Shown: positions 18,910 to 60,800, numbered from the stretch's first letter. The stretch: 64,000 nt of DNA from Lingula anatina (GCA_051362555.1 CM120646.1:21080001-21144000), one strand, 5' to 3'. The notes: generated by a model not told the origin, from the sequence alone. Numbers and translations are program-made.

Positions 18910-19145
18910 TGAGATATCACAGTATAATGATATGGTCATGGTGAATTGTGATATCACAGTATAATGATATGTTCATGGTGTATTGTGATATCACAGTATA
19001 ATGATATGTTCATGGTGTATTGTGATATCACAGTATAATGATATGTTCATGGTGTAAAGTGATATCTCGGTATAAAGTTATGGTCATTGTGGACTGTTTC
19101 ACTGTGTAATGAAATGGTCACTGTGAACTGTGGTATTATGGTATG
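18910..19145. repeat. 37-bp minisatellite, 4 good plus 2-3 decayed copies
   Basis: TGTGATATCACAGTATAATGATATGTTCATGGTGTAT recurring at 18914, 18951, 18988, 19025. Confidence 0.9.
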
Positions 19146-39800: not shown

Positions 39801-42800
39801 TGTGTTATTTTCATAGACTTCTGCAATAGGGGTCGACAAGCCGTGAAACAAACATACTGTTCAAACGCTGGATAAAAGGAATGGCAAGTTGAAAGTGCGT
39901 GAGAAAGTTGCTGAAATGCCATGATCACGGAGTTGATCCCCCAGGTGTAGTCCATTTATGATTTTTTTACTCGGTTTAGTTACTTACAATACCTTAATCT
40001 GATTGATTGACGAGTAGCGCTGTGTAAGCCGTGGCATTGATACATGCAGCGTCAGTGTATATCGCTCGGTGTAGGAAGTTCCTGTTTTCCAAATTGTAAA
40101 TCGGATTGTCGAAGAATGCAGTGGGACAGTTTACGGTAGCTAATATGGAGTGAAGTTCGCTTACGGGATTCCCATGTTAGACCGACATATTTTGAGAATG
40201 CTTGTCTCGTCACTTTTTCCTTTATTAGATACTATCATAATGTAGGGATTTTCGGTTACGCCCCTTCGATCCAAGCAGTCTGACAGCATACCAGCACTAT
40301 GGAAAGTTTGTCCGAGTAAAAATTAACAACCGTTTATAAACAATCGATTCATATAAAGTTTCACCAAGATTTTTGACATTTCTCGAGGTGCATGCACCAT
40401 GGAGAAGAGATGACCAATGAGCCACCTTAACTTCACGTGCTCTTCTGTTGGTTTATGCTTCACCACAATACCTCCCTTACTGGCAGAAATTGGTAAAAGA
40501 TGAACTTATCTTTTCACAAACACAAATCTTTTCGACCCAGTTATCTAGCTACCCGTTTCACCAGTTTTGGAACATGTTCTTCAAACTTGAATGTACGTAA
40601 TGAAGTGAAACAGCCACTTGCTTTTTAAATTCCAAAACGTTTAAGCTCTTATGATAGCGACCAATCGCCTCTCACAGTCACATCATCCAGACCACGTGAC
40701 GAAACCACGCCTTGTCCGAGAACCATATTATCTCTAGAAGGTCTAAAGGATTGTCTCTAGACGAATTTTCGAAGCTCTAGAGATAGTCTTTTAGTCATTC
40801 GAGGGGTATTCTGTCCACGTTAGATGGCAAGGAGACCACAGATTTTGTCGTCATAGTAACTAATTCAACAAAAGTCGTTTCGACAAAGGGAAGTGCATTG
40901 AACATGAAGCAATACAAAATGATAGACACAAACAAACTGAAGAAATATGTGCAATGTTAAGACAAAATAGTGTTTTTAACAAAGCCTGTAATATATTCAG
41001 TCAGTTAATCGGACATTGCGTTCCTGTCAGCCATTCTTGTGGTGTGCCAAGTTAAAGTCATCATGTAGTTTGGCCTCTCGGGAACAAAGCACTTTAAGCC
41101 AATAATCTACTTGTTGAGGTGTATTTTGGGTTACCCAACCTAACAAACACACAGTAATTCACAGTTTAAACTACAATGAAAAACCTTTATAGAGTAGTCA
41201 AACAGAAGTATAAAAGATGATAAAGCCAGAAGTCTTCTGTTTCACAGAGAGATATTTGGACAATATAGGACGACATCAATGTTGTTATGCTTCGTTTCAT
41301 AATAGCACTTTCCGTAATAAAAATTAAAGCGTACTCTAAACCATACTCACTGAAACATAAACATTTCTTTTACGTCTTCCTGCAAGAGAAATTACTGCAT
41401 ATGTCGTCCACCTGAATCGCAGTTTGCTTTCCATTTTCTCAGGGTCCCATGGGTCCACGTGGTCCCTCCGGCCCCCCAGGGCCCCCAGGTCCCCCAGGTT
41501 TCCAAGGCCTCAGAGGTGAACAAGGAGAACAGGGACCATCGGTACGTACAGTAAACTGTATAGAAATTAAAAAAAAACATTTTCTTCATATAAAAAGTAA
41601 ATACAGATGATTGAAATAATATAGATAAAGATATATTTTGTGTTTCTTCATTTGTGTGTAGTTTTGTAAATGATGATACTCCGTTACGTAAATTTGCCAT
41701 ATTGTCGTTAATTGTGCTGTAGTGTTTTCAATGGAAAAAATTGATTTCAGTTTTCTTTACAATAGAACGGATGATGTGTTTTAGTCCTGCGACTGCTCCT
41801 GCCTCTACCATTTCTACTATTTCTTCTACTAGTACTATTTCTACTTGCTCTGTGTTTAACTTCAAGAATACAGATATGACAATCTTATGGTAGAAGATGT
41901 ACGTTACCATGTCATTTCTTCATTGAGTTGATGTTATTTGCTGTTCTATAAAGGGACCACCAGGACCTCGTGGTGTAACTGGTCTCCCAGGCCCCGCTGG
42001 CAAGGATGTAAGTGAACATCTCGAGCACCTGCACTGTCCCTTACGACCCTCACGGTCCCTTACGACCCCAATGGCCCAATTCTACTCCTCATTTCCCTCT
42101 TCAGCATTGGAGAGAATTTATTTTGCATGACAGGACTTTGTATTTGCTTTGTCGAGATTGCCTATATGGTTGTGGGTTTTCACCCTTTGAATTAATCGAT
42201 GATCTGCTTGGCGGCAACAAAATTAAATTCGAGCTTAATACTTGAAAACCAAAAGTAATCTCGACAAAAAAGATACCCAATCCAGAAGCGGACGGAGAGA
42301 GCTTTTTCCCGATCCTAAGCCAGGAAAACCACGGCTGAACAGAACACAGCCCAGAGCACAATAGCACTTCAATGTAGCTAAATAATTGCACACTTTTGTT
42401 TCACCCTGCACTGCTGTTTAGGGCAACCCCGGATCACGCGGAGCTCCTGGAAACCCAGGGTTACCCGGACGAGACGTAAGTTAGCCTTGCACTTAGTCTT
42501 AAATTTCACATTTGAAGTGCACAAGCTACGCATACAAGCGCACATTGCATCATTACAGTGTATAATAAGCCTTAGATTAAAAAAGTATTTGCGAAACGTG
42601 AATCGGCGAAAACAGTTTTAAATATTAGATTCGCATATAAACGTTATTGTTGTATCTTGACAGACACATTTTTGCTTAACAGATAACTTTACAATTGAAA
42701 CCTGACACATGCCGCACTTTATTTATTGCACTTTCGGCAGTCGGCCACTGTCAAATGCTACTTGTTCTACAGTAATCTTTTATTTTTCTTTTTTTCGTTT

Positions 42801-45800
42801 CGTTTATTGACCAACTTTTATACCTATTTAAACTATTCAACTATTTAAATGATTTTCTATCTGTATGAGGAATATATATACTTAATAATGGTGGAACAGT
42901 GGCTAACAACCACTTTTTTGGCATAAGCGACATTTAGGTTCTGTCTTAAAATGACAAAAGGACACAGGTTTTAAATTGTGTACAATAAAATCATATTTAT
43001 CAGTTAAATTCAATTTTTGTCCTAATACTTGGATCTGACGTTCACTTTCACGAAATATCGATCAACTCAAAGAAGGCGTTGTTTAACATGTTTTTGAATT
43101 TTTGTCATATTTAGGGTGAACCAGGCAAAGACGGCGAGTCAGGACCAAGAGGACTGCCCGGACCACCAGTAAGTGTTCGATAACTCCGCAGGTACCACAA
43201 ATTAAAAAATCATAATTGTTTGAAATAAGTACTTTCGTCCATCACCCATGGCTTTGATCACTCTGACATGTTATACATGTACTGATAGCGTGTTTTTTGA
43301 CTGACAAATAACATGTTTTATCACTAGGGAGCCAGAGGAGCCGCTGGCATTCCAGGACTTCCAGGCGCCAAAGGACATCGTGGTTTCCCCGGTGCCGCCG
43401 GAGCTAAGGGATCCCAGGGAGCAAGTGGCCCAAGCGGTCCTACAGGATCCCCAGGACAACAAGGAGAACAAGGCCCAGCTGGACCCCGCGGTGCCCCAGG
43501 AGAGAGAGGACGCAATGGACCCCAAGGACCTCAGGTAAGAAGCTGACGCCTTTGAGCACTTGTCGAACTTGGACCCATGCGATATGATTTCTCTGCACAA
43601 ATTCTCCCATTATTCTGATTGTTTTGCTCGTAGCATTGTCGTGTTCAATCCAAAGCCACATAGCGTTTTTATATCCACTTCAAAAAAATTATTTGTTTTT
43701 CTTTTATATTGAACGGGAAAACAAAGTATTTTACTGCGACTGCAGTTTGTTCTACACATTTGCTGTAAAGTATATTACACGATTCCAAATTTAAATAAGT
43801 CTTTTTGGGGTGCGTCGGGCAGTTCAGTTATTTTAAAATCCTTTAACATCTCTTTGTCTAGGGTCTGAGAGGTATTGACGGACAGCCCGGTGCAGCTGGC
43901 CCACCAGGACCTGCCGGACCAACAGGATCACCAGGATTCCCCGGATCTCCAGGTGCTAAGGGCGACCGCGGTGCTGGCGGACCTAAGGGTAACCAAGGTC
44001 TTCAGGGACCACGTGGCATCCGTGGTGCCACCGGACCCCCAGGTGCAAATGGCAACCCCGTAAGTATTCTTCAACCTCATTCCAAAATGTACATCTATCA
44101 TATCATATGACTGTGATATATTTTTATTCTAAAAACAAAGGCTCTTGACATATATTTTAGAAGGCATGTATAGGAGAATATACATAGATAACAAAGCCAC
44201 GTACATTCAAATCTCGTTCAAACAAATGATGCCGCGACCAGCAAATTTTAAGTTACACATCCCAATGCCATTATCTCCATCTACAGGGCAAGGACGGTGC
44301 CCCAGGCAAGGATGGCGAGAAGGGCCCCCAGGGTGAGACCGGAGCCACAGGTTCCCCAGGCTTCCCAGGACCCCAGGGTCCCCCAGGACCAGTAGGCGGC
44401 CCCGGACCTGCTGGGGCCAAGGGAGAGACAGGTGCTCCCGGAACCCCAGGTTACAAGGGAGAGCCAGGACCCCAGGGAGCTGCCGGACCAGCAGGAGAAC
44501 GTGGAGCCCAGGGAATGCCCGGCGAGCCAGGAAAGAGAGTAAGTCTAAGCTACGTTCAGAAGCGCGGCTTGTGCTGTCTCTATCAAAACCCTTACGATTT
44601 CGAGTCACACGTAGGCTATAATTGAGGGTGCGGTTTATGCAGAGTTATGTTGACGTCACCTCTTTTAATTTTTAAAGTTAACATCATTGTCTTCATGCAC
44701 TAGTTTATATGTTTACATATTTGTCAGACGCCCTGTCTATTGTAAGAGTCAAAGTATAATATAATAAGTTCACTTAAAACAGAATTCCCCAACCATGAAT
44801 GATACATTGAAAGATAATCTTCTGAAAATGCTAAAAACCATAATACATAATAACAAGGAATCCTCTACCTCCAGGGTGCACGCGGTACCCCAGGAAACAA
44901 CGGACCCCCAGGACCCCAGGGAGATAGAGGTGGCCCAGGAGACCGCGGCCTCCCCGGACAAAGCGGACCAATGGGCCCCAAGGGTGCTGACGGAGACAAG
45001 GGTGCCACTGGTGAGCCAGGTGCCAAGGGACCCCAGGGAGACACCGGCCGCCCAGGACAACAGGGAGCCATGGGACCAAGAGTGAGTGAAATGTTGGATG
45101 AAATCCAGTGAATATTGTTCGATTTTATGACAGGCGTGCTTTGTACGCAGAAATTTTAATGCCGACACTCTTTGAATATTTGAAGCTATTTCCTGAATCT
45201 TTTGCTCAGTTGGGGTCAAGCTTTAGTAGAAATTTGTTTTGTGCATTCTTCATGGTTGTAATGGGTTAAGCTACATGTATGAAATCCATGGTCATTTGTT
45301 GACCTATACAACCGACTTTCTTCACTTTACTTCAGTTTGTGTGTCAGCCTTCCTGTGTAATTATTTCACGTCCGTACGTTCGACAGCCATGGCTTCCAGA
45401 TATTTATGGTCTATTACCACCTCATTTCTTTATTTCAATATGAAATTGCCTTCGCGCATTGAAACAATATTAACATTGAACATGTTTAACTAAACGATAA
45501 CAATATTGATGTTTACCAATATCATCGCTCATATCATCCTAGGGTATGCCAGGCGCACAGGGTAATGACGGACGCCCAGGACCAATCGGCCCCGCTGGCC
45601 CCCCAGGTCAGGATGGCAAACCCGGTGAGATTGGACCAGCTGGCCAACAGGGCCTGCCCGGACTTCAGGGACCCCCAGGAGAGAAAGGATTCCCCGTAAG
45701 TGGCACCAATATATGACTAAAACGTGTACAAATTCCTCACGCCGTAAGTTACACTAAATTATTACTTAATGGTCTTACTGTAGCCGTTATATCATGAATA

Positions 45801-48800
45801 TGTGAAAAACGTATTTGACCCATTTCCTTTACCACGGTCAGATGGCAATGCTGCATTGTTTTGTCTCTTCCACTAGGGTGAGAATGGAAAGAACGGTGAG
45901 GTTGGACCAGCTGGCCCCACTGGCCCACAAGGTGACCCCGGCAAGGACGGCCAGACCGGACCTATCGGACCTCCAGGTCTACCAGTAAGTACATGCAGAA
46001 CAGGTGCTTGTCGTGTGTAGAAAATAGTGTAATGGGGCTGAAAATGTAATTGCGACTGGAAAGTTACGTTTAATTAACGTATAATTATTTCTATCATTAT
46101 AATAAGTAGTAGTATATACAAAGATGGCTTCTACTCATGAGGTCTGTGTGCATGTACCCGGTACATGCATTTGGGGGGTGGGGGGGGGGGGGGGGGAGTT
46201 GCTTCAAAAGGACACGTTATACCCTTCATCAACTGAACGCTAGCATTCCGAACCTTAACGATCTCCCTGCTTGTCTCCCTCCTTAGGGTGAGGCTGGAGA
46301 TAGAGGAGAGCCCGGCAAGACTGGCGCCCCAGGATTCCAGGGACTCCCAGGTGCCCCAGGTAACCCAGGTGAGACAGGTAAACCAGGTGAACAAGGCGCC
46401 CCAGGAAACACCGGCAACCCAGGAGCTCCAGGTCCAAGAGTAAGTGATAGCATTATTTTGAAATTAGAGTTAAGATTTATAACTTACTATGTTAAATATA
46501 CTGTGCAGAAGAAATAAACCTGTACATAAGTACATTTTCAAAATCCATGATACCTACATAACCCTGAAATAAAACGGAAAGGCGCAAAGTAGTACTTTAT
46601 GTTAGCGTTTAATTGCATATACAAAAATTATTAGGTGCGTTTCAATCAGAAAACTGCAGGATATTAAGATGAGGTTGTATCCAGTTACAATCTGAAATGT
46701 CAGCACAGTGATATCCGTATGCAAGGCACACTGAGCCAAACTCTGAACTTGTTTTTCGTGAATAGGGTGAGCGCGGTATGCCAGGAGAGCGTGGCAATGC
46801 CGGCCCCGCTGGTCCTCCAGGCGCTCGTGGATCTCCAGGTGACCCAGGCTCTGATGGCAAACCAGGTGTGGACGGTAACCCCGGAGCCAAGGGAGAGAAG
46901 GGCGAACCAGGACTGGCGGTAAGTAGGGAGCTTAACCCTGCTGGTTGGACGAAATGATCGGTCCAGAATGCCAAATATCCGATGTGTTAAAAATGCAATA
47001 CAAGAAATTTGGAAGGTGTTACTATGATAACAACAGAAGAACCACTATTGGTAAACCTTTTATTTATGTGTGTTCCTGTGTGTCTGTACATGTTTATGAG
47101 TACCACACATATGAGCTGCAATGATACATCAAAGGTGTGATCTGTGATAATTAAGCGACAAAAATGTAGACTTTTCAAAAAATAAATAAATAAATAAATA
47201 AATAAAAACCCGAAATTTTATCGAAATGTACACCCTATCTTGCAGGGACTTCCAGGAGAAACCGGACCAACAGGACCCGCCGGCCCCAAGGGAGCTGACG
47301 GCGCCCAGGGACAGCCCGGACTCCCAGGAGAGGCCGGCAAGGATGGAGAGAGGGTAAGACGCAGAGGTGCCACTGGCAACCAACACACGCACGGGTAGCT
47401 TTATCATTTTAAAGCTGTGGAAAAGCACCTGTGTTTGGCGGCGGTCAAAGATATGCACTGTGTGCGAATGGATTCTCCAGGAGAGCAATGAAGTGGGGAC
47501 GACAGGCCTGGAAGACGAATAATTAATGTCAATATAAAATTATATCTGAAGTTAAATTAACTTTGTCTCAATCTGAGCGTAATATTGATATATACAGCAA
47601 AAAATATCAGGGGAAAATAGAAAAACAGAGAAAGTCGAAAATATTCATTATTTAACTGAAAGCAAAAGGTTAACACATTGTTTCCGTGTGTTCTATATGT
47701 ATCTCTACGTCATCTGTCATGTTATGTGTCATGTGTAGGGTTTGCCAGGTGCCCAGGGTCTCATGGGTAACCAGGGACCAGCTGGACAAAAGGGAGACGC
47801 AGGTGATCCAGGCCCAGCAGGTGAAGTTGGTGCCCCAGGACTGCAGGGAGAGCGAGGTCTGGCCGGCCAACCAGGCCAGCAGGGTTTCCCAGGGCCACCG
47901 GTGAGTGCCTGCGCACTTCAGTAACCCACAATTTGCACAAATATTTCACCTGCACTTTTCTTTTTTTATTGGCCCCGTCTTTAGGGAGAACCGGGCCCAC
48001 AGGGTCTCGCCGGCCCAGCTGGTGCTCCAGGCCCAAGAGGCGAGAACGGTAGTCCTGGACCAGCCGGTCAAGATGGTCGCCCCGGTAAAAATGGCGATCG
48101 AGGTCAGCAAGGATTCCCAGGGCAGCAAGGTCTTCCCGGACCGCCGGTAACCAAAAAGCCATGTGTCTTGTCTGTTTGCAGCTTGCCTTAGCTTGCGCCA
48201 GGGCGTCTATGTGACGTCATCCTGTAGATGTTACGTCATGTTGTATTTTGACGTCACATCAAGCGATGTGAGAGCCAGTTCCCGAATCTGTCAACATCGC
48301 TTCTGTGTCTTTGTTTAGTCTGTTCTTTGCTAAATCATGGCAATCTCTTTCAGATCCCAACAGCTAATCCAATGACAAACTTCTGGCGGCATGCTTTCAA
48401 TCAATCAAATGCATTTAACTTTTTTCTTGTGTCTGTCTTTGGAACGACCAGCATCACTGTTAAGTGGTAGCTGCAGTAGATTATGAAAAATTGACTGATG
48501 GAATAATAATTAGTAGTAGTTGCAGTGTTTTGTGCACTTTGGTATCGGTAATAGCCTTTCTAGTGAGTGTGATTAATATGAAATAGAAATCGCTACTAAA
48601 CTTCTCCTGTCATTATGTTATGCAAGCAGCCATCTTTTGCTATACATAATTGAAAAATATAATTCGCAGATTAGACCAAATAATTGGTGTATTTTGCCTT
48701 CAAGGCTGATTTATGCTAGACAGCCTCTACTGTCTGTAGTGTGTACGCGGCTTAGAGTAAGTCCTTGCTTAGAGTTAGTCTCGGCTTACGAGTTAGTCCT

Positions 48801-51800
48801 TGCTTAGAGTTAGTCTCTTGCTTGTATACACAGCAGTAGACATTTGTTCATCCTTCGCCTTTTACACAATCGTACATACCTCATTGGCAACTCATTGGAT
48901 CAATGCAGAATAATATCAGAGAAAAAAAACATTGTACAATCTGCTGAGTCAGAGGTATTTGTTTCACAAGTATTAGCGAGTACCACTGTACCTGAAACAC
49001 CACACCAAGACAAAACAGCACAAACGCTTCGTTTTTTTATGAAGGATGAACAACTTTATCCGCACCATGCACCACCCATCAGAAATGATATACTTGTTAA
49101 CGCCGTGGTTTTAACATCGTAGGGTCCAGCTGGTCCACAGGGTCAGCGTGGTGAACAAGGTTCTCAGGGACTGAAGGGTGAACAGGGACAACAGGGTGAC
49201 CGCGGAGAGCAAGGCCCAGCAGGTGCCCCAGTAAGTTGCAGTGTTTTCACTTTCATTCTCTATTGATACTTTCACTTTCAATCTCTATTGATACTTTCAC
49301 TTTCAATCTCTATTGATCATAGCCACAGTACGTGACAATACTGTATGAAGTATCCGAAATGGATAATCGAAATATCGAACCTTTAGGGGCGGATATGTAA
49401 CTGATGATTGAAGATTGGAAATAAATGCAATAATTCGTTTTAAAAATCTTATTTAGCGTGATGATATATCGACCCGTTTGGCTGTTTGCGAACACTCCAG
49501 TGTTCGCAGTTTTCCTCAGAATTCTCATGATTTTGATGTTTGGGTTACCAATCAAGCTGCTCATATTTTTACAATATTTACTAGGAACTTAACAAAATTA
49601 ACTTACACGTCCTAAATTCAGATCTGTTTCAAGCCAAGCAGTAATATATAAACGGCTGGTGAACCAAACTATTCTCTAATTCACAGGGAAAGGACGGATT
49701 GCCCGGCCGCCCAGGAAGCCGTGGTGACACTGGTGCTCAAGGTGCCGTTGGTTTGCCAGGTGCCCCAGGCCGCCCAGGTGGCCCCGGTGTCCAGGGTGCT
49801 AGCGGACCCCCAGGACCACAGGGCGAGGTCGGCCTGCCAGGAGAGAAGGGAGAGCGCGGTGAAACTGGCCCACAAGGACGTGCTGGAGACCAAGGACCAA
49901 TGGGACCACCAGGCCAGGAAGGTGACAAGGGACCAAAGGGTGACGACGGTGCCCCAGGTGTTGCTGGGCCCCCAGGAGCACAGGGATCTCAGGGAGACAG
50001 AGGCAGCCCAGGTATACCAGGAGGTAGAGGAGAGAGAGGACCACAAGGTGCCCCCGGCCCAGCTGGTGAACGCGGTGCTCAGGGCCAGGCAGGCAAAGAT
50101 GGCTCTCCGGGTAACCAGGGTCTCCCAGGATCTCAGGGACCAGCCGGACCACCAGGAGCAACCGGAAATGAGGTTTGTTTTTCATGTATTATGTGTGTGT
50201 GTGTGTGTGTGTGCGCGTGCATTGTGTTGTTGCACCATAAAATTGGCTTCATGCCGTATTACGTCGAAGACCGATTCATACATGTATTTATCAGACATTA
50301 AATGTCGTTTGGCCTGCACTTTGTTGATTCTTCAGTCATTTGATTCTATGCGATTCTTTTCATAGGGTATGCCAGGAAAGGATGGTCTCCCAGGACCTGC
50401 AGGTCGTCAAGGCGAGAAGGGTCCACCAGGCCCCAGCGGCCCACCAGGCCCAAGCGGTCTCCCAGGACAACAGGTAACGTTGCATTGGAAACAAGATTAA
50501 ACAAAATATTATATCTGATCCAGTGCTGTCCGTTTATTGAATGTAATATTAGGTTAACAGAGTGTATTCATCCATGGTTATTACGGTTTGCATTATTTTA
50601 CGAAATACTTTGCGCTGGCAAACTGTATAAGACTTAGAAACAACTTTATGTTACATGTATGTAACTGCTATGTAATACAGTATATTACAATTTCAACCAC
50701 CTGATGAAATACCACCAATTAAAAAACACGCGTTTAAACCAAAACTGTCAAACTTATTGTTACTGATACTGATTGTTGAGATGGTTTGGTATTTAGGGTA
50801 ATGCAGGTCCTCCAGGTGCCGAAGGCAAGACAGGCGACCGTGGTGCACCGGTAAGACCAACAGGAACGCTACCAGTGTTCCTCTAGCACTGACGCACTGT
50901 GCACCTTTGCTGTTATTATTCCTCACTCAAGCACTTTTTGTTTTTCATGCCCAAGGGGCCGTCTGGCCCATGGGATCCCCAGGGACGACCATGTGGACGA
51001 GGGTGTAGGGTATAAGAGATGCACACGCACTGCACTATTTTCACGATCTTTTTGCACTTTTTTCTGTGTGATATTAGGGTCCACCTGGCCAACAAGGATC
51101 TCAAGGTCCATCAGGAGAAAGGGGTGAACGGGTATGATTGATTGTTTTGTTTGAATGTATGTGTTGCGTCCTACTTGGATAATAGATAACAAGGTGAAAC
51201 TCTGTAAGCTCTGGATGAAAGTCACCTAAGTATTGCAAGCTTTCCTCGGCAACCACGGAATATTAAGTTGCGGTAGAAAGCCTATGGTGCTTTTGCAACT
51301 TATATCTAGAATTTACTAAGTTAAATCTTGTAAAGTACACTGCTTGGATAACGGAACTAACAACAGCCTTCTTGGAAAATGTTTGACTTAAAAACGGGAC
51401 ATCTTTCTACACAAAACCATGCCTTTGGTTTTGTAGTGCAGTTATATCTCATTCATATCTGCATTATTTTCATTTTGAAGAGTGTAGTTGACGGAGAAAA
51501 TCTCATTTCTCGATTCTTTGCTGTCAAAAGTTTCGATGTTTCATATAAGGCACACAGTTAATATTTCTTGTAAAAAATAGGAAGTAGAGAATTTGAAATC
51601 GCATTCATGTCCATATCGGTACAAACTTGGACAAGCTTGTAATTCCTTCGATACAGGACAATATTCAGTTTTAAAGATCATAACGTTTTGAAGATTTAAT
51701 GTACCATGTTGAATGGAGGGTAACACTGTAGGCCCCCCTATTGTCAGTTTAATAACTCATATGGAATACTACACTAAGTATAACGAATCCATCAAATCTT

Positions 51801-54800
51801 TACAAATATGAAGAACTCAAACCGCCAAATGTATCTTTCTAGAGGAATTTTCTTTACTTCCCCATAGTTCTGTTACATTGAATGTGTGCCTTATGTGTAT
51901 TTAAATGACTTGTGTTACTTTCAATACTAATTAGTTAAACTAAAATACTCATACCTTGTATTTTTGTGATACTTAGATTAGCTATTTACTAACATATTAA
52001 CGTAAAACATTCCACCAAAAAAATAAATATTAATTTGAGTATACACATAAAACGTCAACTGTTATCATTATTTAAGACATATTATTTCGCTTGTTTTGAC
52101 CAGAATTAAGTAAAAGAACACATGCACAGTCCGAGATTAGTCTAGAGATACATATTAATTTGAAGATTACACGCACACACACACACATACACACACACAC
52201 ACACATGGATAATTTTCATCATAGCAAGTGACACGTCTTGCCGTCAATAACATCCTACACCTGTACTTGTAGGGTGAGCGTGGTCCAGTCGGTCCATCCG
52301 GGCCTTCAGGTCCTCCAGGAGCAACTGTAAGTATAAACTAGTTCTTTACTATTATATTCTTGACTCTTGTAAATAATTAACTTCGGAAAGTGTGCTGTTT
52401 CGTGTTTGGAAATTTCGTGTTTGTACCAGCTATTTCAAATAAAAGTTTGCCCAGGAATCGTGTTAGTTTCTTACATTACAAAATCCTGTATATGTAAAAA
52501 GTTGGAATGATCTACGAGTCGTGTATGAATACGAATATGGAATAATATTTGTTGGTACGGATAGATAAAATAGATTAATCTAAATACCTCAACATCACCT
52601 TTATGCTTCCAGGGCGCCCAAGGCCTTCAAGGTGTTAAGGGAGATCGTGGAGCCGATGGAAAGAAGGTATAATGATTCTCCCTTGTCCTTAAATTAAATA
52701 AACGGTTAACATAGTATATATCTGCTTTAAAAAAAGTACACCGACGATCACACCAAATCCTATACCGCCAAATTATAATATAGCCCAGATGGCCTGACAA
52801 AATATACGCCAATAAAATGTCAAAATCATAGCTCCAAACCTAACTGTTACTCTCGTTCCCCAGGGTGACAAGGGTTTCACCGGTCTCCCAGGTCTTCAGG
52901 GAAGTCCAGGCCCACAGGGTCCATCAGGAGAGATGGGTCCAGCTGGATCTAACGGAGCACCAGGACCAAGGGTAAGTGCCGGAAGTGCTTGAAGCACTCT
53001 GGGTAAAATTATTTGGTGGGTTTCAGACGGATCTGTTGTTTCGTAAACTCGTTGAACATTCTGATAGAAACTCGTAACTTATCGTGTGTCAAATGTTTGG
53101 TTTTTGAAGCAGGTAAAGCAAGATTTGAAGAAGACTCTGTTTAGGTTAAATAAAAACATAAAAATGATGTCAGATTTTGGTTTACTTTTTCTTTTTAAAG
53201 TGCCTTAGTTTAATAGAGAATGAAGTATTATTCATTTGCATGCAGTACGTTTGGTATCTTAACATAAAAAACGTACCCCAATCAACAGTAATTCAGACCT
53301 GTTTTTCGATTCATTCTTAAATTTGCTTTGTTTACGAGATAATGATAGAGACATATTTATAAACGCAATATTTGTATGATATAATTTTATTTTCTCTTAT
53401 GACAAAGCAATAATAAAACCTTACTTTACAGCAAGACCAACATCAGGAAAAGGATGAATCTCCACAAAGGACCCACGAAGAACAATGCTTGTTTGTTTTA
53501 TATTGATGAAAGATCAAAGGGACGAATTTCCGAAGTTTATTAAAAGCTTCAAGTAAATCAAGTTTAATGTAGAAAATTGTTAAATACTACACATGCAAAA
53601 TGACTTGTTCAAATTGGTTTCAGGACGTTACACGTAGTTCCTTGAGGTGAAATGAAATGATCGATATCTCATCCATAATTTGTGTTTTTCTCAAAGGGTG
53701 AACGCGGTTATCCCGGTAAGATGGGTGCAACGGGACAAATGGGACAACCTGGTCCCCGTGGGCCTACCGTAAGTGACCTCAAGATGGCCTTAATGGCCAA
53801 GGGGTAGCCAGAAGGGCAATGGTTACCACCCATAACAATGACAACTTCAACATTACACACTAAGTTAAGGTACAAAGAAAGGTTGACGGAGACTGCCATT
53901 TCGTTCCAAGACCCACATTTTCTAAATAAATTTAGCCATTGGAATCTGTTTCGTGTACAAAATGGTTCCTAGGTTAGGAAAACTGAGACTCCTCCCTCAA
54001 CCATTCTTTGTGCCATAACGGACACATTATATAAATGTTAAATGTCAGACTTTTCTGTACGTGTACAATTTTTATTGGTAAAAGGGCGAACGAGGAAGTC
54101 CAGGTAGACCAGGCAAAGATGGCTCCCAAGGGCCAATGGGTCCGCCGGGCCCGTCGGTAAGGAAATGGCTTGTAGCGTGAACCCAGGGTAGCTCTAAGTT
54201 GCCGGGAATGGGTGCGCATGCCCGCTGCACGTGATGGTGACTTTACTGTCACGTGTAGCTTTTTTATCTTGCTTTTCCCAAAGCTTGCTATACTTCTTCT
54301 TCTTTCAAATAAAAGGGTGAGCGCGGTCCAGCTGGTCCTCCCGGAAAGGACGGTGCGCAGGGCCCAATGGGTGCCCCAGGAATGAGGGTGAGCGACATCA
54401 CTGCACTCTCGTCTCTACGGGATTTAACTCACCTTTTGTCAAATGAGATTTCATAAACCTCTAGTCACAATGAGAGTTATTGAACTTTTAGTCACAATGA
54501 GATTGAAATAAACTCTAGTCACATTGAGATCTAACGAGTTTCTTGGCACAATGGAATTTAATGAACCTCTCAGCACAATCAGTTTTACCTCACCACTTGT
54601 CTAATAAAATTCAATGAACCTTCTGGCACAATGCGACACTTCTCTTTCGGCACAATGTACTTTTTCCTAATTCAATTCACTTTGCAACTTAAAATGAAGT
54701 ATTTAATTTATCCACTACACCTTAAATGTGTAAAAGATCATATTCACATTAACCTCGAAAATAAAGGCCATAGTTTCTCAAAACGGATAGACAGTATGGA

Positions 54801-57800
54801 CATTTGGAATCAAAGTGGCCAAACTCGACAGCGGCACAGCACCCTTTATTTAACATTCTTATCTTACCTAACACTCGCATTTCTCTCTATCTCTCAGCGG
54901 ATGTGTGAAACCAGGGAAGATGCATTTGCAATTCCCGAAAATGAAGAAAACCGCTTTTTTCTTTAAACAAAGCACTGCACCCTCCTAAGCACCAGCACGT
55001 CGACTGCAGGGGAATAATGACAGCTATGAGAAAATCACACGTGCTTGAAACAATTTGTTGTCTTGTTGTACGTCAGCACTGTGTACTTTTACATGCTGTC
55101 TATTATTACCCTAACGGTTGACACGGTAAGTATTGCAATGGTTCTAAAACTAGCTGCTGGACGTTTTGATAGCAGTACTTTTAGCACCATTCCGGGCACA
55201 TTTGTCACCACTTATCAAAACACGGTTTCGGAAGGGTATGAACTTGTATGTCCTCCACTGACAGGGAAGCTTGAAAGGTGATAGTTTTGGAGAACCATCG
55301 ATTTCCGAGTCTCATTTTGATCCAATCACATCGTCGCATGTTATTCATCACGTGATTCCTTGAGAAAATCATATTGACCAAGCACATCCCTATCAGTGGA
55401 CCGCCTTACAGAGGCAGACCCTATCCAATACGAATTCATGTGTTACACATTACTTAAGTTGCACTTAACACGGTAAATCATCGCCTTGCCCATCTTATCT
55501 TTAACATTTGAAAAGATGCCACTGACAGTCACCGAGAACGGTTCAGACAGACGAGGATATCTCTTAGCTCAAAAGTTTGGCTCCATGGATAGAGATCCCG
55601 CCTCTCTCTTTCCGGGGGTTGTCTGTCACGTCACTTTCCAGTCTCTAAGTTTGGGTCTGATTGAAAAATTACTAAAATCGTGAGCTTGGCGACGATCCGC
55701 ACACATATTCATCACCATGCAGCCATTTTGCTGCGGGGTTACAATGATGACGGTAGCGCACCACACACCTCTTTTAACTTTCAACCACATATTATTTTAT
55801 TGTGCACTATTTGAATTCTTCGTTTATAAAATAGACTTTGTTATTAAAACAGAGTTAAAGATATCACTTTTTTTTGTGAAGTAAGAAGTTGTGTGCCTTG
55901 TATTTTGAAAAAACGTAATTTGCGCTTGGTTTCATCACTATTTCTGTAATCTAATTTAATTTAGGTTATATATTCATTCTTTTACTCCTTAACTTGACAG
56001 TTAAACTGCATCGCCTTGAAAATAAGTTCTCTTAGTAAATATACTTGGAATTGTTTTTCCTTATTTTTCTTTTCGAATATTTCAAAAATAACTCACATTA
56101 TTGATTCCTTGTTCAGGGTCCAAGAGGTATGTCTGGAGATGACGGCAGACCAGTAAGTAGACATTTTGTTGTTCCTGTCATATTTAAATATATTACACAT
56201 ACGAAAGAAGTAGTAGCAATTCTCAAAAAAAAAATTACATTGCTTTCGATGTTTGTGCATTTCAACACATTGGATAAAGCTAGAGATAATCTTATCCTCG
56301 TACATGTGGTACGCGCCAATACTGCAGTTCTGAAGAGAAGTATTTCAATATATTTCCATCAACAGGTAAAACCATGGTACAAAATGTGAACGTGGCGCGA
56401 TGCAGGCGTAAAGTGGATTTTTAAATAAAATTCCTTTTTAGATTCCAATCGTTTACATGCTTAATACATCTCTTTTGTTAATATCTTGTTTAGGGTCCAC
56501 CCGGTCCACCAGGTCCTCCCGTAAGTAATTTTTTTATTAAATAAGTTTTGCTTTGAAAACTGAATGCATAAGTAAGTCACATATGAGTAATCACAGATTT
56601 ATTATTGATTTATAAGCAAATAATGCTACTTAATATTATATATTTTTGACTTTTTCATTTGTTGTTTTCTCTTATTTTTTCAACGTTTAATGTACTTGCA
56701 GATTTGGAATTGTAATTCAAAGTTTTGGTGTTTATATTTTTTTGAAGGAAATTTTTAACAATGCATTTTATTTCAGACAGAAACGCATCCGTTCTTGTAA
56801 CTTTTCATCTTATTTCATCTTTATTTATCTATTTAAATATTTTGATGGGCGTTTTGCCATAATGTTCCTGATTATAATAGTTATCTTGGTGTGAGTCAAT
56901 CCATCATTTAAATGATATTTGATACAGCATTGCTTTATTCATTGATTAAGTCTTTATTTTGGGTAAATATGTTAAAAACTGTACATACTGTTAGCCAAAA
57001 TTTAATTGGTAGAATCCTCCTTTCATAAAAAAATGCGATAAAAACTTGACCTCTGTTAACTGTAAACCATATATGAACACATAGGGACCCCCAGGCTCGG
57101 CTGCCGCCGAAAGACCAATATACCCACCATTTTTCAACAGGCCTAAAGGTCCAGATCCGTACCTTGTAAGTAACTGATTGGTCGGAACTCGGGCAGATTT
57201 TTAGCCAGACATACATGTGGCCAGCGCTGTGTATTGTCTGCGACAAGCTCGCCTGCTACCAGAGCTATATATATGTGACTGACAACGTGTTTGTGGTCTC
57301 CTGCAAACCGGCTATCAAAGATCACCAAGAAAGCTGAAATATGAAGACCGCTTTTAAAAATTGCTGATGGCTGTGGTTTCTGAAATCTGAAGTATTAATT
57401 TCATGTGTTTCTTCACTTTCTCACTTTTTCTGCTAATATTTTGCAAAAAAAAAAAATACTACCTAGATTTTTCGAGGAGCCCCTTGGTGATCTCATCATT
57501 GGTATCCGGATTGATGGGAGTTCCCAGTGTTTGTTTGTTTGTACAGTAAATAAGTTGTTTTGTGTTTCCTCACCACCTCCAGGGATCTCCCGGTCCAGCG
57601 GCCGCCTACACGGCGCCGTTCTTTGCCAGGCCCAAGGGCCCCGACCCTTACCTCGTAAGTACCCCGGCTGAAGGTGAACCAGGCATCCCCGCCTCATGGC
57701 GGCAAAATACGCTTCCATCTTATGCACTTGCAATGACCTATATTTATCTTTATGCGCGCGTTTGGTTTTTCTTTTTTTATTATTTATTTAAAGCCATATT

Positions 57801-60800
57801 TGGCTGCTGCTGCTGCGGTTCAGTTTCAGGGACGAAAACGTGAAGAAATATGGCGTTGTGCGCGTGAAACAAGCCCCCCCCCCCCCCCCCCACCACCACC
57901 AAACACACACACCGTTATATCTTGTTGTCCATATGAGTGACAATAGGGTAAATCCGACTAAATCTAGTGTATTATAAATAACAACTTTATCGACAACTAT
58001 ATGCAGGGTCAGTCGGGATCACCGGCCGCTGTAGACTCAGTGCTATTTTCCGCTCTGGCTCGAAGAGGATCTTCTAGTAAAGGACCTCTAGTGAGTAGTG
58101 ACCGTATGATCACCGTGATTGCGATAAAACAGCATTGAAGATGACGGGCTGTTCACTTCCAATCTAAGTTTGCTTCATACCACAGTCACAGATGTTGATG
58201 TGATTGCAATTTCACTTGGTCTGTTTATGGGCGAGTCACACAATTTTGGTTTCTTTTATGTGTAAAACTGCGCATCATACCAGCGCATTACGGCTCTGCC
58301 TGGCAGCTATGAGCGCTGTTCACTCACTACTGCTTACACTAAGAACCACCGTTTGAATCCGTCACCAAGTACAGTATCGTCAAAAGTTATCGTTGCATCA
58401 AACTCAAACGCGGATTCACCGCGGTTGCAGTGCAATGATAAACCATGGCGATCTTGCAGAATGCACTATTCAGTCCATCAGGAGGAGAGGACACGACGAC
58501 ATTAAGAAGAGCCCCAGGCTTCACAGCCCACATTCACTTGAACCACAAAATGATTTGGCTGCATTCATGATTAATGATTGGCTTATATTTATTTTATTTC
58601 CTCACTCACGTGCTCAGGGTGCACCAGGCGCTGCCTCTAGTAATGATGGATTACTCATGTCTCTTATGGCGCGTCCCGCGTCTGGCGGAAAGGGTCAAGT
58701 CTACCTCGTGAGTAGAGAGGCGGTTTAAACCGCAGTAGGAATCCCCCTTCTGTCTCTCAACATCCCCTCCATATCGATATCAGCACCATTCTCCCCTCCT
58801 TCACTTACTATTGGAAGAAGAGAAAGAGAGCGATAGAACTCTCTGGATTAGACACCGCACCCTACCTACTGACGACCTTTTCCATCATTCCACACAAAGA
58901 TCTAGTAAATCTTGAACTTGCAGCACATAACTGACACGTTGTTGTCCTTTGCACCCGATTCCTTCTGTGCACCAAGCAGTCGTTTTAAACCCCTTATCGT
59001 TATTTCGAGTCATGCACTTTCTGTCAAAACTTACCCCTCAATCGACCAAGGTTCACTGCACCACCTCATATGTCGGTTTGCACCTTACAGCAAAGAGTAA
59101 CCAGTCCAATAGAAAGAGTATTGTTCTCGCACGCCCTCTGACTGGAAAAATTAACACTAGGAATCGCACTTTACTTGCCAAGACCAGAACACCTCACTCT
59201 CACAGTCGGGCAACTGGGAACCACCAATCTCAGAGTTCGGTACATGGTACTTGAAAGCACCAACGGCATACTCTCTGACACTGTAGTAGACGTACCAAAC
59301 CAACACCCACTGAACTAGAAGAGCACTCGTGATTGATGATTTCTTACAAACTTTTACTTAGCAGCACAATATTGCAGCGTTCTCTGTGAACACGGCGCGT
59401 TCGCACAGTCAATTTTGGCATGGCGCACTTCAGTACTTTGATTGACTTACTTGAAATAACCTTACGTTGGGTGAATTTGATTGACCAAAGCTCAGTGTCA
59501 AATAATTCACATTATCAAAATGGCGTTTTAAAGGTTATTTCGAAGTTTTGCACTATTTTCTTTAGCGCGGCGTTGCACACCTTCACCGTTTTACCGTTTA
59601 TATTGCACCTTCATTTACCAGGCCCACCTCACCAGCACCCTAGACCACACACCCCATCTGCACCTCCACTCCTTCACGCCCTGCATGTTTCAGTGTCTTG
59701 TTTTTTTTTTGTTTCTTTGATTATTTATTTGTTTGTGAGTGTAATTTGTTGTTTCTTTCCTTGGGTCTTCAGTCCTCTATTCTGTTGTTGTTTAATCCTA
59801 CCCTGCATGTGTGTATATTGATTAAGTTTTGTTAGTACATCTAGATTTGCATTACCTCTGTTCTACTTTTATAACTTTATTTATTTATTTGCTGTTGTTT
59901 GTTCTGTTTTGTTTTGTTTAGTTTTCGTAGTTGCATGGTTTGTTATACACGTCAGTAGATAGAATTCCCTTCAGTTTTGTTTAAATTCAATTTTTCGCAG
60001 CACTCTTTTAAACGCAAATTCACCGTTTTAACAGAATATTTAACTTGCACTGGCAAATGTTCCTAGTTAACAAATGTTCTATTTGCATTTCATTTGAAAT
60101 ATTGCCTACATGTTATTATTCAAGATTAACACTACTGTCAGTAATTGTAGAATGAAACTGGGATAAGAAATTAAATGCTAAAATGTTCATATCAGGAACA
60201 CTATTTACAATATTTCTGAAACGGAGAACCATTAAAATGTTACAATTTTTACAGATCATTATAATGTTGTAATTAATGGTAGTCCGTGAAACACCTTGCT
60301 TAATTATAATAATTTATGATAGTCCATGAAACACCTTGCTTAATTATAATAATTTATGAATTTTTCCCATCCGTAGAATGATGCTCCAGGAAAATTCTCA
60401 GGAGAGGTAAGTCGGAGTTCTGAAATCTGACCGCCTTTTAAATTGTAATCCTACAACATAATGTCCAACTAGCATCTGAAAGCGGCGTTAAAATGTTTTG
60501 GTTAATATTTAAGAAAGGAAAAAGAAGTAAATTAGGAAACAATATTTGGTCGAAGCGGCCATGGTCTAAAACAGTGCCTTAAAAGAAGTGACAACGCAAT
60601 ATTGGAATTGTCAAAAAGGTCCTAGATAATATCATGATATAGTTAACACACTGGTACGATCCTGGTTTGCTTCTTGCAGGAGAACGCTTTTGAGAGCCTC
60701 CAGTACCTCCAACAGGCCATCAACAAGATGAGGAAGCCAGACGGCACCAAGGAGAACCCCGCCAGAACCTGCAGAGATCTCGCTGCTGCCAACGACAAAC

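Follow-up and report, generated by a model that had tools for sequence, protein, structure and literature searches.

How does a collagen gene that carries several tandem copies of its helix exons keep the length of its triple helix? The question is raised by a stretch of 64,000 nucleotides (nt) from Lingula anatina (GCA_051362555.1 CM120646.1:21080001-21144000), here called the window and numbered from its first letter, which contains a complete fibrillar procollagen gene (26294-62554, plus strand, like all features below) with five clusters of duplicated exons. One exon of each cluster is almost certainly spliced into the RNA, mutually exclusively, and the choices very probably form coordinated, graded and non-random programmes that differ by sample. 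With a probability of roughly 80 per cent, we favour the explanation that one exon per set is spliced at a fixed helix length of 337 triplets, and that the sets are switched together by sample, the tissue being the likely determinant and one GCAC-binding regulator of the RBPMS/MEC-8/couch potato family the likely agent.

The gene and its duplicated exons

The exon model has one open frame, with Pfam matches to VWC, Collagen and COLFI, and is joined by RNA reads; the exons upstream of 39004, outside the stretches to which reads were mapped, belong to the exon model only. By one path it encodes 1448 amino acids in the order signal peptide, vWC domain, minor helix, N-telopeptide, major helix of 337 triplets, C-telopeptide and COLFI domain. 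The vWC N-propeptide matches PF00093. All three C-propeptide exons scanned match PF01410 above the cut-off, and the COLFI region also matches the C-propeptides of collagens I and III in the Protein Data Bank (PDB). Fibrillar collagens have an uninterrupted helix of about 338 triplets between propeptides (PMC2852846; papers are cited by PubMed Central number, each citation covering an excerpt of the paper), and this is the arrangement found here. The vWC N-propeptide and a helix colinear with those of types I-III (see below) are features of clade A, to which the gene may belong; by our own reading of the sequence, the chain-recognition region is short, as in invertebrates (cf. PMC2852846).

The 14 duplicated exons are named by cluster and letter in genomic order. 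Cluster 1 consists of 1a (41954-42007; helix residues 37-54, intact) and 1b (42422-42475), both of 54 nt; cluster 2 of 2a (47739-47900; helix 586-639) and 2b (47985-48146), of 162 nt; cluster 3 of 3a (50797-50850; helix 874-891), 3b (50956-51009) and 3c (51078-51131), of 54 nt; cluster 4 of 4a (53697-53768; helix 964-987), 4b (54085-54156) and 4c (54316-54387), of 72 nt. Cluster 5 contains four exons for the helix end and C-telopeptide: 5a (57085-57165, 81 nt), 5b (57583-57654, 72 nt), 5c (58007-58090, 84 nt) and 5d (58618-58707, 90 nt). The preliminary description of this DNA had proposed these five clusters, and all 14 exons were recovered at these coordinates with AG/GT ends and phase 0: tandem homologous copies of equal or similar length and the same phase, as in known clusters of homologous exclusive exons. 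The copies are not an assembly duplication, because they are only 43-60% identical in DNA; RNA reads also confirm them.

All 96 paths that take one exon per cluster and avoid 3b give 337 uninterrupted Gly-X-Y triplets, the count predicted earlier. The 48 paths through 3b, a degenerate exon with the weakest donor, are interrupted at triplet 292, where Asp and Cys occupy two Gly positions. Including all extra helix copies would add 52 triplets (6 + 18 + 12 + 16), a sum that agrees with the earlier one. This in-series reading was rejected on the basis of the path computation, the RNA joints and the register of the 46766 and 49687 exons against rat alpha1(I).

With an offset of +3, the KGHR lysine falls at helix position 87 and the lysine of the second KG at 930, as had been proposed; in the alignment, the KGHR lysine of rat alpha1(I) is visible at helix 87. 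We take position 930 to be the second cross-link lysine and position 502 an integrin site. When single exons were compared with rat alpha1(I) (3HQV chain A), three of seven queries matched best exactly where predicted (the 43328 exon at chain position 89, the 46766 exon at 515 and the 49687 exon at 692), and the other four had their best match elsewhere in the repeat. The spacing from 515 to 692 fits exactly one cluster-2 exon. Among 393 comparison proteins, sought for a full-length ungapped register test, none has at least 300 unbroken triplets together with a COLFI motif. A search for hidden further copies with 37 queries found none above noise; the best matches in introns had E 0.008-0.009, and one of them lay on the reverse strand.

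The exons 5a-5d all keep the frame, AG/GT ends, two triplets and the KG lysine. 5a encodes the last two helix triplets and the C-telopeptide, and the others alternative versions of the same part, of which 5b is intact; 5c and 5d show little similarity to 5a, and their donors score low. The KG lysine lies 15 (5a), 12 (5b), 19 (5c) and 19 (5d) residues after the helix end. The acceptors of 4b (54064-54085) and 5a (57064-57085) are purine-rich and weak (scores of -1.7 and 2.7 versus a constitutive mean of 11.4), and yet these exons are the main copies in some samples. 2b contains the stretch GPQGLAG and 2a the stretch GLQGER, which we take to resemble a collagenase cleavage motif and an integrin motif, respectively.

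One exon of each cluster in the RNA

Raw RNA-read runs from the same species are coded X1-X9, and seven of the nine were used. Reads of X1, X4, X7 and X9 were mapped on 41401-61400, and reads of X5, X6, X8 and X9 on 47688-54467; the figures given here come from the 15 of 48 joints listed for the first mapping and the 15 of 17 listed for the second. The collagen gene is not expressed in X1 (65 reads, mostly spurious).

In X4, X7 and X9, the RNA passes through every cluster by a single copy. The joints 41541>42422>43115 skip 1a (28/48/49 reads into 1b and 38/52/57 out of it in X4/X7/X9), 50473>51078>52273 skip 3a and 3b, 52971>53697>56117 skip 4b and 4c (36/81/67 reads for 53768>56117), and 57165>60377 skips 5b-5d (62/52/41 reads). 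The second mapping reveals the other copies. In the order X5/X6/X8/X9, exon 2a is joined to the next exon (47900>49123) by 0/237/24/23 reads and 2b (48146>49123) by 109/5/36/33. Exon 3a is entered by 0/173/5/4 reads and left by 0/194/0/3; the corresponding numbers for 3c are 71/6/50/70 and 93/4/51/68. Exon 4a is entered by 83/20/56/41 reads, 4b by 0/125/9/13 and 4c by 0/42/0/0. Loose read ends show that the common upstream exon precedes both 2a (156 reads, X6) and 2b (53 reads, X5), and that the common downstream exon at 56117 follows 4a, 4b and 4c (97, 86 and 29 reads, the latter two counts from X6).

Seven of the eight copies in clusters 2-4 are therefore used, each joined alone to both flanking exons, and no joint between copies in series is found among the joints listed in either mapping. 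Exon-equivalent depths give the same picture: in X6, 245 for 2a versus 3.8 for 2b and 254 for 3a versus 7.9 for 3c; in X5, 7 for 2a versus 103 for 2b and 11 for 3a versus 123 for 3c. They limit double inclusion to about 2% in X6 (from 3.8 versus 245) and 7% in X5. Clusters 2, 3 and 4 thus consist of exons that are joined singly without double inclusion; for clusters 1 and 5, only 1b and 5a occur among the 15 of 48 joints listed.

These data bear out the central proposal of the preliminary description, mutually exclusive splicing at a fixed helix length. Duplicates joined in series and clusters with a single copy ever used, the two outcomes it had named as fatal, are not what the joints listed for clusters 2-4 show, and its concern about an assembly artefact is answered by the divergence of the copies and the reads on them. 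Use of alternative copies holds for clusters 2, 3 and 4 and was not seen for 3b, for which the 15 of 17 joints listed include none; its bin depth is near zero in the deepest sample (0.06 in X6) and at background level in X5, X8 and X9.

For cluster 5, the joint from 5a to the next exon is less frequent than the following joint in X7 (52 versus 86 reads) and X9 (41 versus 74), with 62 versus 66 in X4, and the depth over 57409-58075 is 4.7 versus 1.0. Deficit and depth together suggest that about 40% of the X7 and X9 RNAs carry another telopeptide exon, possibly 5b; allele mismatches could also cause the deficit. Among the 63 changed codons listed (40 rows of 424 plus 40 of 146), 23 read differences change the amino acid, none of them at a helix Gly.

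A backward joint, 48051>48008, is an artefact; its letters match the exon at 46766-46918, outside the mapped stretch. In X7 and X9, loose ends of collagen-like sequence and irregular joints that include foreign letters occur at 43135, 44295, 46344-46370 and 48031, although the whole helix lies within the mapped stretch; they probably stem from a second expressed collagen gene. Unspliced intron coverage is concentrated beside the clusters (47354-47738, 52972-53696, 56521-57582 and 58708-60376); X5, for example, has a depth of 8-11 in 52972-53696 and zero in 49270-49495. Late removal of these introns would give such coverage. Within the last of these introns, 58743-59409 stands out from the neighbouring intron in X4: its mean depth is 5.8, and 13 reads fall at 59071-59074. 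Retention of the intron, or an exon or end that went unrecognised, could account for this; a telopeptide-like copy with an open frame was not found in it.

Coordinated choice by sample

X5 and X6, which come from one study, make nearly opposite choices (Fisher p < 1e-50 at each of the three clusters). X5 uses 2b, 3c and 4a in 100% of its joints, and X6 uses 2a in 98%, 3a in 97% and 4b or 4c in 89%, with 4a, 4b and 4c at 11, 67 and 22%. X8 and X9, the reads of which differ by a few per cent from the window, are mixtures with 40% of 2a and only 5-9% of 3a (p 2e-10); there must therefore be RNAs that carry 2a with 3c. On the lower confidence limits, at least four combinations are forced: 2b-3c-4a, 2a-3a-4b, 2a-3a-4c and 2a with 3c.

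The splicing programmes are thus coordinated and differ by sample, and they are likely to be tissue-specific. In a gene of the Dscam type the choices would be stochastic and largely independent, and X5 and X6 follow near-pure opposite programmes. The part of the preliminary description that called the gene Dscam-like, with 96-144 chains from one locus, is accordingly not supported as it stood: these numbers are a ceiling only, and the combinations forced by the data are far below 96.

GCAC motifs and intron structure

When the 14 inner and downstream introns of the clusters were analysed, GCAC ranked first among the 256 words of four letters (p 1e-9, Bonferroni 3e-7), with 73 occurrences in 8596 nt versus 59 in 20195 nt of the 26 constitutive introns. 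The excess is strand-specific, with 73 occurrences versus 16 of the reverse complement in cluster introns and 59 versus 61 in constitutive introns. Close GCAC pairs number 31 in the former and 4 in the latter. Dinucleotide shuffles give 11.4 GCAC for the inner introns (20 observed, 1/200 shuffles) and 20 for the downstream introns (53 observed, 0/200). No comparable enrichment was seen for RBFOX (TGCATG), STAR (ACTAAY), YCAY or YGCY motifs.

The motifs lie in particular places. Only four of 45 exons, 1b, 2b, 3b and 3c, have at least three GCAC within 80 nt upstream. There are four just upstream of 1b (42356-42411, a candidate repressor site), three between 2a and 2b, in an intron of 84 nt (47913-47955), and four upstream of 3b, in a 105-nt intron, plus four upstream of 3c, in a 68-nt intron (50886-51057). 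Downstream of cluster 4 there are 19 (5.9 expected; 54403-55807) and downstream of cluster 5 there are 22 (5.8 expected; 58783-60050), both candidate activator fields. The RBPMS protein represses exons from about 80 nt upstream, activates them from downstream and switches the exclusive pairs of Actn1 and Tpm1 (PMC6613909); the RBPMS/MEC-8/couch potato family prefers double GCAC (PMC5311487). The pattern seen here, tandem GCAC ahead of repressed exons and after activated ones, is that of the RBPMS map (PMC6613909), and if X6 represents the state with the regulator on, all three clusters that could be tested (2, 3 and 4) switch as the map predicts. Motif position thus makes a GCAC-binding protein of the RBPMS family a reasonable, somewhat favoured candidate for the regulator.

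Two of nine inner introns fold better than their shuffles, and none of 19 constitutive introns has a z-score below -2.2. The intron between 4a and 4b (z -3.3, 0/100 shuffles as stable) has a predicted long hairpin at 53864-54019, and that between 4b and 4c (z -3.7, 0/200) a predicted hairpin of 16 base pairs at 54224-54259. No introns of the gene are shorter than three inner ones, of 68, 84 and 105 nt. Together, the predicted hairpins and very short introns may block double inclusion. A search for pairing between a docking site and selectors, as in Dscam, found no site common to all selectors of any cluster; p values for pairing of inner introns with themselves were biased, with both arms counted, and were replaced by the folding z-scores. 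The complementary pair 57277-57306/58918-58946, found post hoc, would loop out 5b-5d; the other exons have no matching selectors.

Alternative explanations

The existence of 96 in-frame paths of equal helix length makes it arithmetically possible that each cluster is decided on its own, in a more or less random manner, so that most of the 96 chains are made, and X8 and X9 do hold both copies of three clusters, as X6 mixes all three exons of cluster 4. A very low probability is nevertheless all that we would give to such free combinatorics: X5 follows a single path (alternative joints 0/109, 0/71 and 0/83), X6 does the opposite at clusters 2 and 3, and the search for a docking site shared by several selectors was negative. 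Even less probable is a purely genetic difference, with splicing alleles of different individuals and no regulation by tissue or stage. X5 and X6 are coded and may be different animals; against this, the flip is common to three clusters within 6.6 kb, the window is matched at 99% or more by most reads of both runs, and minor RNAs with 2b, 3c and 4a are still made in X6.

The most serious competitor, although we think it unlikely, is a real coordinated switch that depends on a different factor or on RNA structure (hairpins, steric blocks in short introns), with GCAC incidental or secondary. The folding of the two cluster-4 introns, the three shortest inner introns and the enrichment of further CA-rich four-letter words speak for it; structure and intron length are able to prevent double inclusion, but leave the switch between samples unexplained, and the GCAC positions agree with the direction of the switch in each tested cluster. 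It is rather improbable, finally, that only three clusters are alive and that 1a and 5b-5d are intact-looking, unused relics like 3b. None of these four exons occurs in the 15 of 48 joints listed, and 5c and 5d have diverged from 5a as described. All four, however, keep frame and AG/GT ends, 5b-5d retain the two triplets and KG lysine, GCAC surrounds clusters 1 and 5 as it does clusters 2-4, and the 5a joint deficit in X7 and X9 and the depth over 57409-58075 point to use of other copies.

Several points weigh against a single GCAC-dependent switch of all five clusters. No listed joint directly shows the exons 1a, 5b, 5c or 5d spliced, the X6 reads having been mapped on 47688-54467 only; 33 of the 48 and two of the 17 joints lie outside those listed, where a rare in-series joint or use of 3b could hide. 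Short reads do not phase the clusters, and the combinations given are bounds from marginal shares. The runs X1-X9 are codes without tissue, stage or individual labels. In a first test of four-letter words, on flanks of 100 nt, GCAC ranked top without reaching significance (Bonferroni 0.08), and the grouping of introns for the later test was chosen once the motif had been seen. Seven of the 14 introns (e.g. 4a-4b and 5a-5b) have no GCAC excess; GCAC therefore does not explain the choice of 4b versus 4c or among 5b-5d. Nor was there an orthologue with which conservation could be tested: word-based protein searches and a library of representative proteins at 50% gave none above 56% identity, the best hits in the ESM Atlas (0.76) included none, and 79 loci in Joint Genome Institute (JGI) metagenomes are at most 51% identical.

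Proposed mechanism and consequences for the protein

According to the coordinated-switch explanation, the default path with the regulator off would be 1b-2b-3c-4a-5a. With the regulator on, 1b, 2b and 3c would be repressed by the groups of GCAC directly before them, and 1a, 2a and 3a would be used; the GCAC fields downstream of clusters 4 and 5 would shift the choice to the later copies, 4b or 4c and 5b-5d. Thresholds specific to each cluster would yield mixed chains such as those with 2a and 3c. Cells of the X6 type are predicted to use 1a and one of 5b-5d.

At the protein level, the fixed length would keep the fibril stagger and the cross-link lysines of the helix in place. Up to 114 helix residues and the C-telopeptide, with its lysine 12-19 residues from the helix end, would be exchanged, by which binding sites and cross-linking could be tuned. 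In the four helix exons, the full default set has two Lys and nine Arg, and the predicted alternative set four Lys and five Arg. More tentatively, and at slightly less than even odds, an RBPMS-family master switch may retype the chain at each of its five variable sites, the cross-linking C-telopeptide among them, and so produce tissue-specific collagen 'types' with different fibril mechanics, a splicing counterpart of the duplications that gave vertebrate types I, II and III and a strategy recurring in other animal lineages.

Each fibrillar collagen gene is usually credited with a single invariant major helix, the regular splicing known so far being that of the propeptides. With natural variants of the same length, one can ask at which positions of helix and telopeptide the mechanics of fibrils, their binding and their cross-linking are adjusted, and the gene shows a route to a more varied matrix in an animal whose collagen genes are few. 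It is also a warning that errors can arise in the gene models of invertebrate collagens, which may be concatenated or limited to a single isoform, and in the proteomics of these proteins. The GCAC map makes sharp predictions for clusters 1 and 5 and names a candidate regulator.

Other features of the window

The C-propeptide (60680-62554) has six cysteines and apparently lacks those that we presume to be Cys2 and Cys3 in the usual numbering. A chain of this kind may require a partner chain for trimerisation. In fibrillar C-propeptides, Cys2, Cys3 or both can be absent (PMC2852846). Upstream of the gene, there is a short tandem repeat of about four units of 37 nt at 18910-19070; no coding gene was recognised in positions 1-26000 of the window.

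Comparison with known systems

A literature search, which covered few subscription journals, found no earlier description of a fibrillar major helix that contains more than one cluster of exclusive exons, in agreement with the preliminary description. The main-text excerpts of two catalogues of human tandem exon substitutions contain no collagen term (PMC8373072, PMC9741552), and the part of the PMC5740500 supplement covered has no rows for COL1A1, COL1A2, COL2A1 or COL11A.

Alternative splicing is known from several fibrillar collagen genes. Human COL5A1 has a homologous, tissue-biased exclusive pair of 69 nt encoding non-helical peptides, and a COL24A1 candidate pairs a helix exon with a non-homologous 42-nt exon without Gly-X-Y (PMC5740500). 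The N-propeptide is spliced alternatively at COL11A1 exons 6a/6b (PMC7558312) and COL2A1 exon 2 (PMC12627340), and sea urchin fibrillar collagen has N-propeptide isoforms (PMC2852846). COL5A1, COL11A1 and COL2A1 thus share with the Lingula gene the use of alternative exons in a fibrillar chain. They differ from it in that these exons lie outside the major helix, in the case of the COL5A1 pair presumably in the C-propeptide.

A case within a collagenous domain is let-2 of Caenorhabditis elegans, which encodes alpha2(IV) and whose homologous exclusive exons 9 and 10 are switched by stage and tissue via the RNA-binding protein ASD-2 (PMC2119826, PMC4165533). let-2 has one such pair, in a network-forming collagen, and its copies differ mainly in a Gly-X-Y interruption, whereas the Lingula gene has five clusters in a fibrillar chain with an uninterrupted helix of exact length, and the C-telopeptide is included. 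The placement of CAC/GCAC clusters upstream of skipped and downstream of activated exons is shared with RBPMS-controlled Actn1 and Tpm1; control by RBPMS and by MEC-8/couch potato has been demonstrated by knockdown, mutation and binding, and here the likeness consists of motif position and switch direction only.

Dscam and Mhc of Drosophila and Daphnia are known genes with several exclusive exon clusters (PMC3228551). Dscam1 likewise has multiple clusters of tandem-duplicated exclusive exons, with 12-48 exons per cluster and stochastic choice (PMC3228551) and docker-selector pairing (PMC4165533); the Lingula gene has two to four copies per cluster, a choice coordinated by sample and no docking system that we could find. 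Arthropod Mhc is the best functional match, one gene for a structural protein in which several homologous exclusive clusters tune tissue function. Mhc, however, is an intracellular motor, and the Lingula product an extracellular fibrillar rod with a cross-linking telopeptide; the new element is multi-cluster exclusive splicing inside a fibrillar triple helix and its telopeptide, with a sample-specific switch.

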